Part shown: piece by piece, positions 42,597 to 47,566 of the stretch | How positions within the stretch are numbered: position 1 is the stretch's first letter | Layout: every line of letters begins with the position of its first letter | Position numbers and translations under genes: made by a program | Assembly (NCBI GenBank): GCA_964607865.1 | Contig: CAZSLZ010000003.1 | Location: forward strand, 1 to 55,204 | From: an uncultured bacterium | GTDB lineage: Bacteria; Vulcanimicrobiota; JAJTBE01; CAZSLZ01 | DNA: 55,204 nucleotides | Direction of reading: 5' to 3' | Notes under the pieces: generated by a model | Database searches by the model: none | Told to the model about the DNA's origin: nothing | Seen by the model: the letters and a program-made list of their open reading frames with translations, nothing else

Positions 42597-43949
42597 ATGA
42601 TTAATAAAACCGGTAATAATTACAGCCAGGTTTTTTCCAGCCAGCCTGCCAATAAAAAAACTGTTGACAGGCAGGAGCAGGAAATAAAGGATAATTTCAC
42701 AGTACAGAATTGCGAACAAAGGGACTGGACTGTTTTAATCTATTCGTCGGCAACGGCGGATATAGATCAGGCGGCCATGGATTCCACCATAGAGCTTGAG
42801 AAGGTGGGTTCTGATAAGAACCTTGCTCTGGTGCTTCAGAAGTCCCGGAACCCCATTCAGGGCAGTTGGAAAGGTGTCCGGCGGTATTTCATTACCAGAA
42901 ATAACAATTTACCGGGACAAGAGATCAATTCTGCTGTTTTAAAGGAATTGGGTGACATGGATATGTCCAGGGGAGAAAATCTTGCTGATTTTGTCAAATG
43001 GGGAATGAAAAAATTTCCTGCCCGCCATTATATGCTGGTAATGGGAGGCCATGGGGCAGGTTTTATGGGCGCAGTTACTGATATGAACAGACAGCGCCTC
43101 ATGCCTCTGCCCGAGATGAAGGAAGCCCTGGACAGGGTAAAAGCTGAAACCGGAGAAAAACCGGATATTCTGGCATTCAATTCCTGTTTTATGGCTCAGG
43201 CCGAGGTTTTGACTCAACTCCGGAATAACACCGATTTCATTATTGCCTCTGAAAAGCCCGAATATGAAAAGGGCTTGCCTCTGGCCAGCTTTGCCGGTGA
43301 GTTAAAACAAAAGCTGAAAACTGAAAAAAACTTCGGGGTAAAGAAAACCGCAGATATCCTGGTGGATAAATCAAAAGATACTCCGGAACAAACCCCCGTT
43401 ATATCTTCTGTTGATACCCGTCAGGCCGGGGGCCTTGCCGATGCCGTTCATAAATTGGGCAAAGCTCTTATCAAGTCCCCGGAAAACAGAAAGGTTATAA
43501 TTGATACTATTAAACAGGTTGCCCAGGTTTATGTTTCTGAGAATAAAGACCCGCTGCTCAGTGATTTTCGCGATCTGGGAGATTTTGCCACAAAAATTGT
43601 TTCTTCCACTGAAATTAAAGACAAAAAACTGAAAAAAGCAGCTTCAGCGGTATCGGCAATTATAAACCAGGCTGTAAGCAATAAGGCAGTGGCTGATTTT
43701 TCCCGGTTACCTGAAAAAGAAAAACAGGTTTTAAAAAAGCAGGGAGTTGATGAAGCTGACTATTCAGCTTCATTCAGCGGAGTTTCAATTTATCTGCCAG
43801 CTCAGAACCCAGCATTTTATGGGCCAAAAATCGGAAAACTGATTTCTGATAATTATAAAAATTTGGATTTTGCAAATAAAACCTGTTGGTTCGAGTTTAT
43901 AGAGAAACTTCACAATATTGAATTCAGCCAGGAATATAACCCACAATAA
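42597..43949 (+). CDS. Clostripain family (C11) cysteine peptidase
   Basis: WTVLIY, FVKWGMKKFPARHYMLVMGGHGAG (catalytic His), DILAFNSCFM (catalytic Cys), IASE, RDL.DF, GVSIYLP. Confidence 0.9.
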   Translation: MINKTGNNYSQVFSSQPANKKTVDRQEQEIKDNFTVQNCEQRDWTVLIYSSATADIDQAAMDSTIELEKVGSDKNLALVLQKSRNPIQGSWKGVRRYFITRNNNLPGQEINSAVLKELGDMDMSRGENLADFVKWGMKKFPARHYMLVMGGHGAGFMGAVTDMNRQRLMPLPEMKEALDRVKAETGEKPDILAFNSCFMAQAEVLTQLRNNTDFIIASEKPEYEKGLPLASFAGELKQKLKTEKNFGVKKTADILVDKSKDTPEQTPVISSVDTRQAGGLADAVHKLGKALIKSPENRKVIIDTIKQVAQVYVSENKDPLLSDFRDLGDFATKIVSSTEIKDKKLKKAASAVSAIINQAVSNKAVADFSRLPEKEKQVLKKQGVDEADYSASFSGVSIYLPAQNPAFYGPKIGKLISDNYKNLDFANKTCWFEFIEKLHNIEFSQEYNPQ

Positions 43950-43983
43950 AATCACAATTTTAATAAATTCTGGAGATGAATAA

Positions 43984-45048
43984 TTGAAAAATAAAACACT
44001 AAAAATTCTTTTCTTAATTATATTTTTTTACACTGGCTTCTGTTCTGCAGCAGAGGAATTTCCCCCGGTTACTCCCATGGCTGATATAATTAATATTGTA
44101 AAAGGGTCGGGTTACTTTGACTATCATGAAACTTATTTTGACCCGGCAAAAGCTCTGGAAGAATACAGGGAAAACCTGGGCAAAGCCAATCCAAACCAGA
44201 TTATTACAGAAGAAGATGGAGTTAAAAAGGTTTTTCATTACGAACCTTCAGATGGAATCAAGGAAAATTTAACAAGAATCAATACTTTGATAGAAGAGGG
44301 CAAATTTGATGAGGCTGAGGTTCTGGTAAACAAATCTATTGAATTGGATCCGGAATATTCCAGCTTACATGTATATCTGGGAAGAATTCATCATAGAAAG
44401 GGAGAAGTTGAGAAAGCTCTGAGTTCTTATGAGCAGGCTCTTTCAGTGAACCCTGTAGATATTCTGGCTCTTAACTACAAGGCTGAAGCTCTTATGGAAA
44501 AAGACGGGTTGATAAAAGACAGGGATTCGTTAGTCAGGGCATTGGTTTTGCAGCGAAATTATGAGCTTACCTGGCAGAATTTAAAAAAACTGGGAAAAGA
44601 AATGGGATTTGAAGTTTATGATGAGCCCTTTTTGCCTCTTTATTCGCTGCAAAGAATGGACAATAAAAAAATTCGAATTTATATAGATTTAGACACGGTT
44701 ACCCGGTGGATGCCTTATTCTTTCTGCAAGGCGGTCTGGCAATATTATCCCGGTTATTTTGAAAAGAAGATGGGTGAAAAGGAATACAGGGAAACCCTCC
44801 AGGAAGAATATGAATGTGTGGAAAACATGTTATGGTCTTATAATGCATTCAGGGTGCGGGGAAAATATCCTCGAGATCCCATGTTGGAAAGGATGAAAGA
44901 TATAAAGACCCGGTTTTTTATAAAAGAGTTCATAAAATTTGAAATTATGGCCCCGGAACACCCTGAATTATTAACTTTGATGGATCAAAAGCATATTTTA
45001 GATATGGAAGATTATATAAAAGAATATATTCTGGTGGAAAAAGAATAA
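43984..45048 (+). CDS. Secreted TPR-containing protein
   Basis: Signal peptide; TPR motifs (SIELDP, YLGRI...AL..YEQALSVNP). Confidence 0.82.
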   Translation: MKNKTLKILFLIIFFYTGFCSAAEEFPPVTPMADIINIVKGSGYFDYHETYFDPAKALEEYRENLGKANPNQIITEEDGVKKVFHYEPSDGIKENLTRINTLIEEGKFDEAEVLVNKSIELDPEYSSLHVYLGRIHHRKGEVEKALSSYEQALSVNPVDILALNYKAEALMEKDGLIKDRDSLVRALVLQRNYELTWQNLKKLGKEMGFEVYDEPFLPLYSLQRMDNKKIRIYIDLDTVTRWMPYSFCKAVWQYYPGYFEKKMGEKEYRETLQEEYECVENMLWSYNAFRVRGKYPRDPMLERMKDIKTRFFIKEFIKFEIMAPEHPELLTLMDQKHILDMEDYIKEYILVEKE

Positions 45049-45067
45049 ATTAAAAGGAGAAAAAATT

Positions 45068-45478
45068 ATGAAAAAAATTACTGTTTTGACCTTGGCTCTG
45101 GTTATGTTTCTGGGGATAGCCCTGCCCGCAATGGCTGCAGATACCCCTGAGCAGGTCTATGCTAAAATCAACAAGGCCATTCATGCCCGTGATGTGGATG
45201 AATTGATGAAACATGTTTCAGAAAAATCCAAGCAAGATCTGGAGAAACACAAGGAAGACCTGCCCAAGATGATCAAACTGATTCAGGTGATGACACCTGA
45301 AGAATATGAAATTGTTGATAAACAGATATCTGGAGATACAGCTACATTGAAACTTACAGCTATGATGAATTTCTTTGGAATGGGCGAACCCAAACCCGCT
45401 GAGGGAACAGTAAAAATGGTAAAAGAAGAGGGCCAGTGGAAACTGGATAAGGAAGACTGGAAGCAGAAAGGCGAATAG
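45068..45478 (+). CDS. Secreted NTF2-like protein (DUF4878-like)
   Basis: Signal peptide ending AMA; TPEQV, ISGDTATL, MVKEEGQWKL. Confidence 0.78.
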   Translation: MKKITVLTLALVMFLGIALPAMAADTPEQVYAKINKAIHARDVDELMKHVSEKSKQDLEKHKEDLPKMIKLIQVMTPEEYEIVDKQISGDTATLKLTAMMNFFGMGEPKPAEGTVKMVKEEGQWKLDKEDWKQKGE

Positions 45479-45609
45479 AAAAACCGAGGAATAACAACCC
45501 TGAAATAGACCTTAAGCCGGTTCAAGTCAGGGTTGTTTTTTATGACAAATTTGTTCTGATTCAGGTTGAATAATTTCATTTTTAGTATTAGAATAGTTAA
45601 AGGTGGTGT

Positions 45610-46222
45610 GTGATAAAGAAACTTGCAGTATTTTTGGCGCTTTGCTATGGGTTTTTATTTGCCTGCCCGGTAATGGCATCTTCGAAGGATGCCGCACTAA
45701 CTCATCCATTAAATGAATTCCGTGTTGAACTTGTTAATGAAAAAGGTTGGGATATTTTCCTGGATAGCAAAAACAGAAGGGTAACCCTTCCTCCTGGTAA
45801 CTATCAACTGAATTATACTTATTTAATTAAAAAGGACAGGCAGGGAAATACCTGGCGAAGCCCGGTAATATCGGCAAATTCATTAACCTGGGGGCAGGTG
45901 AAAACCATGTATTGCCATACAGGGAGCCATTTAAAGTTGAACTGGAAGTTACTCCCCAACTGTTTTCGTATAAAATCAAAGATCGTACCAGCCAGGAATT
46001 TATTTATATATATAAAAACGATGATTTAGCCGAGCCATTTCCATTCAGAGTTTATGATTTAAAAGGAAAAGAAATCCTGTCGGGCCGATTCAGTTATGGT
46101 TGAGGCGGGGTTTGCTCTTATTCCGTGAGAGTAAGTGATATTGTTCAGGGGTGCGGGTTGAATTGACCCCGGATATGGGCCCGTTTCTGTATAACAGGAA
46201 ATGCGAGGCAATTATAAAATAA
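45610..46222 (+). other. Secreted protein gene in three segments: candidate selenoprotein (in-frame TGA 46101-46103) with two apparent -1 frameshifts, or pseudogene
   Basis: Signal peptide...LPPGNY...KDRQGNTWRS / GNIGKFINLGAGENHVLPYREPF...ILSGRFSYG-TGA-GGVCSYSVRVSDIVQG / VRVELTPDMGPFLYNRKCEAIIK-TAA. Hairpin at 46110-46136. Confidence 0.62.
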
Positions 46223-46248
46223 AACAGAATTTGTAAAGGTGAAATAAC

Positions 46249-47298
46249 ATGGATACTTTTTTGACCGACGAAGAAAAGGAAAAAAGAAATTTCTTATTGG
46301 TAAAGCTGGAGGAACAACAGGAAAAACAGGAAGAACAACAGGAACAGCAACTTCCCGCTGAAATGCCTGAAGAACAAACAGAAATAAAAAAACAACCCGA
46401 ACCAGTTGTTGTAAATATTGCCCAGATGGCCAGAGATAAGTTTACCAGGGTGGGCGACCTGAAGATAGAGATGGACAGGGATCTTTCCGAGGAAGATTAT
46501 CTTGACTCACCGGTTTTTGAGTTAATTCAGGTCTTCAAAAGATATATTGACCTGCAGGCAACCCAGAAAGAACTGAAAGATTCTTTTGAACAGGGAATGA
46601 ACTTATTGAAAGAGGATGTAAAGAAAATTTCTCTGGAAGCTGAAGAAAAAAAGCCAGTTGAAGAATTCAGGGCCACCAGCCTGAAACTGGCAGATTTTAT
46701 GAAAGATATATACGGAAAATGGGGCTCTGAAGAACTGATGTTTCTGCTTAAATCTAAAAGTGTGGAACTGGAAAAACTCAACAATGATTATTTAAAGCTG
46801 AGGAAAAAATGTAGTAAGCCAGCTTGCAAAAAAAACGGAAACCAGGAAGTCATTGAAGCAATTTGCGAAAAGATAGACGAAGCTGAGTATAAAACCGCAA
46901 CTTACAAGACACTGGAAACCAGAACAGGAGAGTATCTTTCAGGTATGATCGATGAAGATGCATATTACAATACCATTGAAGAGTTATGGGAGATTATGGA
47001 ATCCACCCGGAAATCCTATGAGGGAGTTTATATTTCTTCCCAGCAGATTACCAACGAAATAGCCATGGGCGATAATCTTCTGAGAGAAGGCCTGGAAGGC
47101 TGGCTGGATGCCCTGAATTACATAATTGAAAGTATCCAGCTTATGGATGAAGAGGGAGTTCAACAGGGGCTGCAAATGGCTTTCGAATCAAACAAAAAAC
47201 TGGTTACCCAGCAGCATCTTTCCCGTTATTCCAAAAAACAGGAAGAAATGGTTACCAACTTTCCCGGAAAACAGTTTTTTAAAAACCAGCCTTGGTAA
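46249..47298 (+). CDS. Hypothetical acidic helical protein
   Basis: 349 aa ORF, E/Q-rich N-terminus; its C-terminal domain resembles the repeat in 48278..49948. Confidence 0.75.
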   Translation: MDTFLTDEEKEKRNFLLVKLEEQQEKQEEQQEQQLPAEMPEEQTEIKKQPEPVVVNIAQMARDKFTRVGDLKIEMDRDLSEEDYLDSPVFELIQVFKRYIDLQATQKELKDSFEQGMNLLKEDVKKISLEAEEKKPVEEFRATSLKLADFMKDIYGKWGSEELMFLLKSKSVELEKLNNDYLKLRKKCSKPACKKNGNQEVIEAICEKIDEAEYKTATYKTLETRTGEYLSGMIDEDAYYNTIEELWEIMESTRKSYEGVYISSQQITNEIAMGDNLLREGLEGWLDALNYIIESIQLMDEEGVQQGLQMAFESNKKLVTQQHLSRYSKKQEEMVTNFPGKQFFKNQPW

Positions 47299-47365: not shown

Positions 47366-47566
47366 AGTAAATGGGCTGGGAACCAACCTCAAATGTCGTC
47401 ATCGCGAGGAGCGCCAGCGATGTGGCGATCTCTGTACTACCCCAATTAAGAATTGGGGAATATATTGTTCGCATCGTAACTGGGGAAAAAAGCGAAAGGT
47501 TCGGTTGCTCACAGACCCAAGGTAAGTGGGTTGGGAACCAACCCGGTCCAAGTTGAGATTGCCACA
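47366..47566 (-). repeat. CGTC-tagged palindromic repeat element, copy F
   Basis: CGTCATCGCGAGGAGCGCCAGCGATGTGGCGATCTCTGTAC...ATATATTGTTCGCAT...GGTAAGTGGG...AACCAACCCGGTCCAAGTTGAGATTGCCAC is the reverse orientation of copies B and E. Confidence 0.88.

Follow-up and report, generated by a model that had tools for sequence, protein, structure and literature searches.

In our study, a locus at nucleotides 45610 to 46222 was examined in a 55,204-nucleotide stretch of DNA from an uncultured bacterium of the Vulcanimicrobiota (contig CAZSLZ010000003.1; the whole stretch is called the window). The locus is best explained, with a probability of roughly three in four, as the decayed copy of a gene whose family, widespread and apparently undescribed, is a genuine group of selenoproteins exported by bacteria and has yet to be curated; an intact copy lies on contig C51 of the same genome. 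A preliminary description of the locus, made from its letters only, had taken the TGA at 46101 as the selenocysteine (Sec) codon of a candidate unannotated exported selenoprotein with a U-x-x-x-C motif, of no family recognised there. This core claim was upheld at the level of the family, in which the TGA is conserved and the Sec machinery is present. The family-level evidence for selenocysteine comprises the TGA, the coding sequence downstream of it, a covarying hairpin, the machinery and the linkage to selA, and as a sequence-based prediction it is strong.

The TGA of the window comes directly after the residues SGRFSYG, and its frame reads on as GGVCSYSV until a second TGA at 46164. This reading, with a Cys four residues after the TGA, was borne out as first described. 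The preliminary description had also joined a signal peptide and the FSYG ending in a single open reading frame (ORF), which was not confirmed. In the ORF table, the signal-peptide ORF (GTG at 45610 to 46029) does not share its frame with the FSYG-ending ORF, which is open from 45831; the GTG does begin an N-terminus of signal or lipoprotein type, but its ORF is not the one that ends in FSYG. The read-through protein of the intact C51 paralog (P0001) was compared with the window by tblastn, and three pieces were matched in three frames with a joint E value of 3e-22 (Table 1). The N-terminal segment was found to correspond to positions 11-90 of the family profile (E 1.9e-13). The middle segment showed 41% identity to paralog residues 107-183 and corresponded to profile positions 99-180 (E 5.6e-12), and the C-terminal segment showed 42% identity to paralog residues 199-222. 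No single ORF from the leader to the final stop is present in the window copy, which runs through three frames with two breaks between them. The third tblastn piece leads to a TAA, 26 nt upstream of the next gene, and the 145 bp past the TGA, formerly described as unexplained, are therefore accounted for; they are coding, and the family domain ends in them with its final ~40 codons, read in a third frame after the second break.

Table 1. Features of the locus in the window, and positions of the reductase genes near family members on two other loci.
Feature	Position	Strand	Description
N-terminal segment	45610..45855	+	Frame 1; begins at GTG; leader of signal/lipoprotein type (...FLFAC) and first beta-sandwich domain
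First frame break	45856..45869	+	Coding shifts one base back, frame 1 to frame 0
Middle segment	45870..46100	+	Frame 0; second beta-sandwich as far as ...GRFSYG
TGA at the selenocysteine column of the family	46101..46103	+	Aligned with the TGA of the C51 paralog and of G003
Post-TGA codons GGVCSYSV	46104..46127	+	Frame 0; Cys codon of U-x-x-x-C at 46113-46115
SECIS-like hairpin, family register	46117..46135	+	Stem 46117-46123/46129-46135, loop 46124-46128 (CGUGA)
Hairpin of the preliminary description	46110..46136	+	11 bp with 4 G-U pairs (46110-46120/46126-46136), loop UUCCG or UCC; local minimum-energy fold
Second frame-break zone	46128..46151	+	Frame 0 to frame 2; holds a four-G run at 46148-46151
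C-terminal segment	46145..46222	+	Frame 2; conserved ...GPF... motif; true stop TAA at 46220-46222
tblastn piece 1	45670-45855		Frame +1, paralog residues 40-100
tblastn piece 2	45870-46127		Frame +3, through the TGA, paralog residues 107-192
tblastn piece 3	46145-46216		Frame +2, paralog residues 199-222
Double-cubane-cluster reductase, locus L156	16061-17293
Double-cubane-cluster reductase, locus L158	11343-12542

The intact paralog on contig C51 was found with the 90-aa FSYG piece of the window as query. It contained, in a single frame, a lipoprotein-type leader, ~180 residues ending in GKFKYG, the TGA, and GGVCSFSV..., which runs on for 40 codons to a TAA. The same 90-aa piece gave no match beyond its own genome among 60 related genomes, and a word-index protein search returned nothing but the C51 paralog itself. 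The family is rare in the phylum of the window, where the profile matched one of 400 other genomes (G003, of the same order). Elsewhere in the genome of the window (G000:C47:11624-11758), tblastn gave a weak match (E 0.26) to the paralog's C-terminal part; it has an IIL-x-x-N-x-GPFDY stretch in common with the paralog and is without the Sec/Cys motif.

The codon at the Sec column was examined in DNA by three designs. In design a, species-representative genomes were searched for G-x-[VI]-x-x-x-G-x-F-x-[YF]-G followed by a T-R-R codon, which permits TAA, TAG, TGA, and TGG, and by GG. At least 132 stretches with at least 136 distinct matches were obtained, and the matches were checked with the profile of alignment A1 (P0001 with 39 of 78 homologs, short single-domain forms being chosen), which was scored on the upstream part alone at E<1e-5. 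Among the matches listed, to which all counts of designs a and b refer, TGA was present in 111 of the 111 profile-confirmed family members. The 25 unconfirmed matches, which serve as a built-in control, contained 10 TGA, 6 TGG, 6 TAA, and 3 TAG. Downstream of the TGA, Cys was conserved at +4 in 110 of the 111 members and Trp at +8 in 93; the read-on length was mostly 38-47 codons, and the reading frame terminated with TGA in 48, TAG in 35, and TAA in 24 members, while four ran off the locus. In design b, metagenome contigs were searched for F-x-[YF]-G-NNN-G-G-x-C-R-Y-S-W with the codon wholly free, and all 129 distinct matches contained TGA, with no Cys, Gly or other codon. The final stop lay within the fetched DNA in 118 of the 129 (41 TGA, 39 TAA, and 38 TAG) and 11 ran off the end. 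In design c, the profile alone was used on five genomes, with no requirement on the stop or on the downstream residues, and TGA was found in 21 of 23 matches. Eighteen of the 23 reach the end of the profile and continue directly with TGA and G-x-x-C, and three are divergent (...SGF[AS]) and also have TGA followed by GG-x-C; one reads on with neither Sec nor Cys into a membrane tail, and one is a degenerate partial match. The preliminary description had named two grounds for refutation, namely homologs with TAA or TAG at this column and no conservation past it, and a genome lacking the Sec machinery. Neither was borne out: family homologs never have TAA or TAG there and are conserved downstream, and the full machinery is present.

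A conserved hairpin was found in the nucleotides that follow the TGA. Alignment A3 covered 45 nt from the TGA in 105 sequences with no gaps, namely 102 of 109 distinct family stretches (seven with an extra codon after the Cys being left out), the C51 paralog, G003, and the window. In this alignment, columns 17-24 are paired with columns 28-35 around a 3-nt loop, that is, 17-35 nt from the U of the UGA. Standard pairs were present in 91.2% of the cells, versus 27-58% when the 3' arm was slid by 1-3 columns, and changes on both sides were seen in eight of the eight pairs. When the columns were shuffled, 0 of 500 shuffles matched the observed percentage of pairing or the covariation score, and 9 of 500 matched the count of eight of eight. 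The bacterial selenocysteine insertion sequence (bSECIS) model asks for 3-9 nt in the loop, 4-16 bp in the stem and a G among the two leading loop positions, and it places the loop 16-37 nt from the UGA (PMC13188914). The family consensus, which has an 8-bp stem, a UGG loop and a spacing of 21 nt, agreed with the model on all four points. So did the hairpins of C51 and G003, which have a 7-bp stem in the same place with the loop GUG and two compensatory pair differences. The window hairpin in the family register, with seven of the eight consensus pairs formed (7 bp, loop CGUGA, 20 nt spacing), agreed on the four points as well. When the 45-48 nt that follow the TGA are folded, the local energy minimum is in essence the stem of 11 bp that had been proposed earlier, but the register conserved in the family is a different one and the fold is not above chance. 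The earlier caveat on the loop, which lacked the expected G, is true of that first register and falls away in the family register, where G is at the second position. The Rfam search of 45400-46400 at E<=10 gave nothing meaningful.

The machinery for Sec insertion was found in the genome of the window, as the preliminary description had suggested be looked for. It comprised a tRNA-Sec (78 bits; called SeC with anticodon TCA by ARAGORN), selB (359 bits), selA (570 bits), and selD, all above the curated cut-offs. The selD gene (G000:C132:4017-4940, outside the window) adjoins selA and selB on a short contig and contains one in-frame TGA, and SelD is therefore itself a selenoprotein. Ten other homolog-bearing genomes were picked for long contigs and taxonomic spread, and selA was above the curated cut-off in all 10. 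In six of them, selA and a family gene share a contig and lie within ~11 kb of each other, and in the other four the two were on separate contigs. The linked copies were six around selB-selA in G401, a single adjacent copy, the degenerate one, in G402, copies at 6-8 kb from selA in G403, a copy at ~5.5 kb from selA in G404, four copies at 3-11 kb from selA in G409, and three tandem copies diverging from selA-selD-selB in G410. The last of these loci (L159, G410:C172:9000-21000) comes from a metagenome-assembled genome (MAG) titled Bathyarchaeia and has a bacterial-type selB-selD-selA operon with three tandem family genes, each with FEYG-TGA-GFTC. The contig may be bacterial and misbinned. An additional C-terminal AhpD-like domain was seen in the selD ORF of the same locus. 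In two different phyla, a family gene was followed 1-2 kb downstream by a gene for an anaerobic reductase of the double-cubane-cluster type (NF040772; E values from 1e-124 to 1e-127; Table 1), which could be chance or a conserved neighbour.

At the protein level, a HMMER search of 1.84 billion representative proteins, with homologs kept at E<=1e-3, yielded 78 distant homologs. Sixty-three of the 78 end exactly at the residue that precedes the TGA, mostly with F-x-Y-G, and 15 read on. The read-on forms were aligned by anchoring on the conserved W-x-x-P after the motif. The Sec position is occupied by Cys in P0022 (C-G-A-G-C) and P0028 (C-K-G-T-C) and perhaps in P0012, which makes at most three of the 15. 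Ser is found at this position in P0025 and P0029, and also in P0003 by MAFFT alignment (P0003 is without the W-x-x-P anchor); Gly is found in P0037, P0060, and P0044, and Ala, Leu or Pro in P0064 and in both repeats of P0054. P0016, P0026, P0039, and P0077 read on with no U-x-x-x-C pair in register. The Cys form P0028 also contains a C-terminal AhpC/TSA domain (E 4e-9). This extra domain was the sole real match when 16 queries were searched against Pfam-A 2025 and NCBIfam 20.0, including their selenoprotein models, and no match to the family domain was found at E<=0.1 to 1. The 16 queries were P0001, two pieces of the window copy and 13 further members, and represent 13 distinct family proteins in addition to the two window pieces. 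In some members (among loci L315, L306, L319, and L320 of G401 and G403) the read-on was seen to run into a long hydrophobic tail, and a membrane region of several helices is joined to one relative that lacks Sec; hence both membrane-anchored and soluble forms occur.

Judged from its sequence, the window copy itself is probably a pseudogene, most likely a paralog that was inactivated recently. With two one-base frame breaks, it most likely yields no full-length protein, and despite these breaks it retains the TGA, the partner Cys, and the hairpin. The same letters were found in Logan, which assembled the same reads separately. Its contigs from run X1, which is probably the source sample, span 45400-45958 (depth ~4.5) and 45932-46400 (depth ~6) with no differences and no gaps; runs X2-X4 cover just the low-complexity start of the next gene. 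The selA (467 aa) and selB (640 aa) genes of the same assembly are unbroken, which indicates that the assembly is not generally full of indels. The hairpin of the window has also lost its closing pair (C opposite A), and with this change the Gly that the C51 paralog and G003 have at this place is replaced by Arg. The window copy is a caution that a conserved Sec codon with its SECIS element can outlast the inactivation of the gene.

Several points weigh against this explanation of the locus and the family. True Cys-for-Sec homologs are scarce, two being clear with perhaps P0012 as a third among the 15 read-on forms, and many such homologs are typical of most known selenoprotein families. Three database proteins (P0037, P0060, and P0044) are printed with Gly at the Sec column, although TGA is found in their close relatives. 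The printed Gly may be the product of a translation table in which TGA is Gly; P0037, when used as query in metagenomes, found no relative, and the DNA of the three was not found. Designs a and b are biased towards read-through forms, since their patterns include conserved residues past the stop, and only design c with its 23 matches is free of this bias. The window hairpin taken alone was not distinguished from shuffled sequence (z -0.87 to -1.45; 16-42 of 200 shuffles fold at least as well). The read support for the frame breaks comes from the X1 contigs only, at ~4.5-6x and from the probable source run, and is neither independent nor deep. Finally, the presence of Sec in the protein is, for every member, a prediction from sequence.

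Among the alternatives, the one that survives best is that the organism itself has an unbroken gene at this locus, with the breaks being low-coverage sequencing or assembly errors, and that it encodes a working selenoprotein of ~203 residues. The low depth, the four-G run within the second break zone, and the matched pieces in all three frames, which are family-like with no internal stops, are in its favour, as are the retained TGA, Cys codon and seven of eight hairpin pairs. Two independent one-base errors in less than 300 bp would be unusual, however, and the separate Logan assembly has identical letters with no variant listed. The other checked genes of the assembly, selA and selB, are unbroken, the closing pair of the hairpin is also gone, and the Gly that comes after S-[YF]-S-V in the two nearest relatives has become Arg. 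We therefore consider an intact gene unlikely, and a decayed copy remains the preferred explanation.

It is much less probable that the TGA is decoded as a standard amino acid (Gly or Trp), by a change of the code or by near-cognate suppression. The Gly printed at the column in three homologs would fit with such decoding. However, most long ORFs end in TGA in five fetched regions of homolog-bearing genomes, where TGA is a normal stop, and neither GGN nor TGG was found in any of the 129 codon-free DNA matches. The presence of selA in all 10 homolog-bearing genomes, often adjacent to the family gene, and the covarying hairpin after the codon, which is compatible with the SECIS model, also argue against it. 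Slightly more improbable still is an ordinary stop followed by untranslated DNA, with a hairpin that arose by chance or acts as a terminator. Gene callers do terminate 63 of the 78 homologs at this column, and the window hairpin is not significant alone. Against this stand the near-exclusive use of TGA at the column in the three designs, whereas the real terminal stops are an approximately equal mix of the three codons, and the ~40 downstream codons, which are conserved as protein across phyla and needed to complete a beta-sandwich. A terminator scan of 45400-46400 also found no terminator-like site on the + strand. Programmed -1 ribosomal frameshifting at both breaks, although these share one direction (one base back), is hardly credible, with no X-XXY-YYZ type slippery heptamer at either site and a single frame in the C51 paralog, the G003 homolog, and all other members examined.

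The structure of the paralog was predicted with AlphaFold2 on P0001 with alignment A4, which contained 57 rows; of the 49 read-through members selected, 48 were included, together with P0080 and seven read-on forms. The mean predicted local distance difference test score (pLDDT) of the model was 92.2 and its predicted template modelling score (pTM) 0.81. The model shows a leader helix followed by two all-beta sandwich domains. The residues after Sec form the strands 189-191, 202-206, and 218-221 of the second domain, and a protein truncated at the TGA would, in the model, miss these three strands. The Sec/Cys loop is the least confident part of the second domain (block mean 77). No thioredoxin-like fold was found around the Sec motif; the model is all-beta and its structural matches are Ig, FN3, and MG domains. 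The best match for domain 2 (residues ~124-224) was the MG1 domain of E. coli alpha-2-macroglobulin (4zjg), with Z 7.3 and a root-mean-square deviation of 2.2 Å over 71 residues; by the search tool's own note, a Z below 8 is generic for this fold class. The tandem layout of two sandwiches is like that of DUF3823 or FN3 pairs. The MG, FN3, and Ig sandwiches, however, have no sequence relationship to the family and none of them bears a Sec/Cys loop. The structural searches returned generic beta-sandwich matches at Z<=7.3, and no SoxY, cupredoxin or other specific functional relative was among the matches listed.

Based on these features, an intact member would consist of a signal or lipoprotein leader and two Ig/FN3-like beta-sandwich domains, the second with a Gly-rich loop, F-x-Y-G-U-G-G-x-C, in which Sec would lie four residues ahead of the conserved Cys. 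The UGA would be recoded by SelB and tRNA-Sec, directed by a hairpin of 7-8 bp whose loop starts 21 nt after the UGA, within the conserved S/R-Y-S-W/V-R/G codons. Translation would then go on for ~40 codons past the UGA, giving the last three strands of the domain, and the Sec/Cys pair may act outside the cytoplasm as a redox-active selenylsulfide or a soft-metal site.

The preliminary description had proposed a redox- or metal-binding protein, for which the one support is a Cys-form homolog (P0028) with an AhpC/TSA-type domain; this assignment still has the standing of a proposal. The protein is exported or membrane-anchored, Sec and Cys lie in a Gly-rich loop, and in one of the Cys forms a domain like thiol peroxidase/ResA is attached. 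We favour, tentatively, an extracytoplasmic redox role through a Sec/Cys selenylsulfide. Binding of soft metals by the Sec/Cys pair is a less likely alternative, and a covalent carrier role may be considered as another. In the SoxY-type sulfur carrier, a Gly-flanked Cys is found on a beta-sandwich. The family would resemble SoxY by analogy, with a reactive chalcogen residue in a Gly-rich stretch of an exported beta-sandwich, and a carrier role is one possibility on this comparison; unlike that of SoxY, the family motif is internal, with three strands after it, and not C-terminal.

In comparison with known bSECIS-decoded selenoproteins, of which the E. coli formate dehydrogenases are characterised examples (PMC13188914), the family genes share the in-frame UGA with a stem-loop directly after it, inside the coding region. 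[quoted passage not shown] The family protein differs in that it is unrelated to any listed family, is exported, is a beta-sandwich and not of thioredoxin-like or molybdopterin fold, and contains U-x-x-x-C and not UxxC or CxxU. Among the predicted families of Table 1 in PMC13188914, the DUF1573 domain-containing selenoprotein (PF07610, motif UGC) and the UGSC-containing protein (NF041046) are similar as uncharacterised predicted selenoproteins with Sec beside Gly and a Cys close by. The spacing differs, however, being U-G-G-x-C in the family versus U-G-C and U-G-S-C, and neither PF07610 nor NF041046 matched the 16 queries at E<=0.1 to 1. The same inventory, of May 2026, lists 119 prokaryotic selenoprotein families or subfamilies with their motifs and models (PMC13188914), and no entry among the 119 in its Table 1 has such a U-x-x-x-C motif or a matching model. 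No description of the family was found in the parts seen of the deep-Sep and BSepDB papers (PMC12013277, PMC13326102). Full-text literature searches likewise gave no description of it, and an earlier listing in supplements or in BSepDB may exist. The selenoprotein family is judged to be real and apparently new; as a mechanism, the way in which bacteria recode UGA for Sec is textbook knowledge.

The genes around the locus gave no functional hint. Neighbouring genes in the window encode a peptidase of the clostripain family, a TPR protein, an exported protein of NTF2-like type, and proteins for which Pfam gave no match. Upstream (42597-45478) lie the genes of the clostripain-family (C11) peptidase, the TPR protein and the small NTF2-like protein; a signal-like leader opens each of the latter two, so that exported proteins may be encoded here in a row. 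A 22-nt direct repeat (47367-47388 and 47522-47543; 91% identical, 155 nt apart) was also observed in the ~480-nt gap after the gene that ends at 47298, with no Rfam match at the gathering score.

The record titles of design a, among the matches listed, were mostly of Planctomycetota, in which the Phycisphaerae, Sedimentisphaerales, Pirellulales, Planctomycetaceae, and Thermoguttaceae were represented. Further taxa were Hydrogenedentota, Omnitrophota, Verrucomicrobiota, Kiritimatiellia, Nitrospiraceae, Aminicenantes, and the one MAG labelled Bathyarchaeia. Gene callers truncate the family, since 63 of the 78 cluster representatives end at the Sec column and lose three strands together with the active-site residues, and this truncation would mean hundreds of mis-annotated public records. 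The family is unusual in being exported and of beta-sandwich fold, with a core subfamily that uses Sec almost without Cys alternatives and with several copies per genome, and in its physical linkage to the sel operon in several phyla. A bolder and rather doubtful proposal is that this is a Sec-obligate extracytoplasmic family with sel-linked multi-copy arrays, which is the main reason why many Planctomycetota, Hydrogenedentota, and their relatives keep Sec, and whose Gly-flanked Sec/Cys loop on a beta-sandwich swings and, outside the cytoplasm, covalently carries or reduces species of sulfur, selenium, or soft metals. If true, such a role would have no counterpart among the known selenoproteins. 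With its exported fold, preference for Sec, multiple copies, and linkage to the sel genes, the family is therefore a good candidate for the selenoprotein that sustains the use of Sec in the Planctomycetota-Verrucomicrobiota group and in the Hydrogenedentota, and a target for biochemistry.

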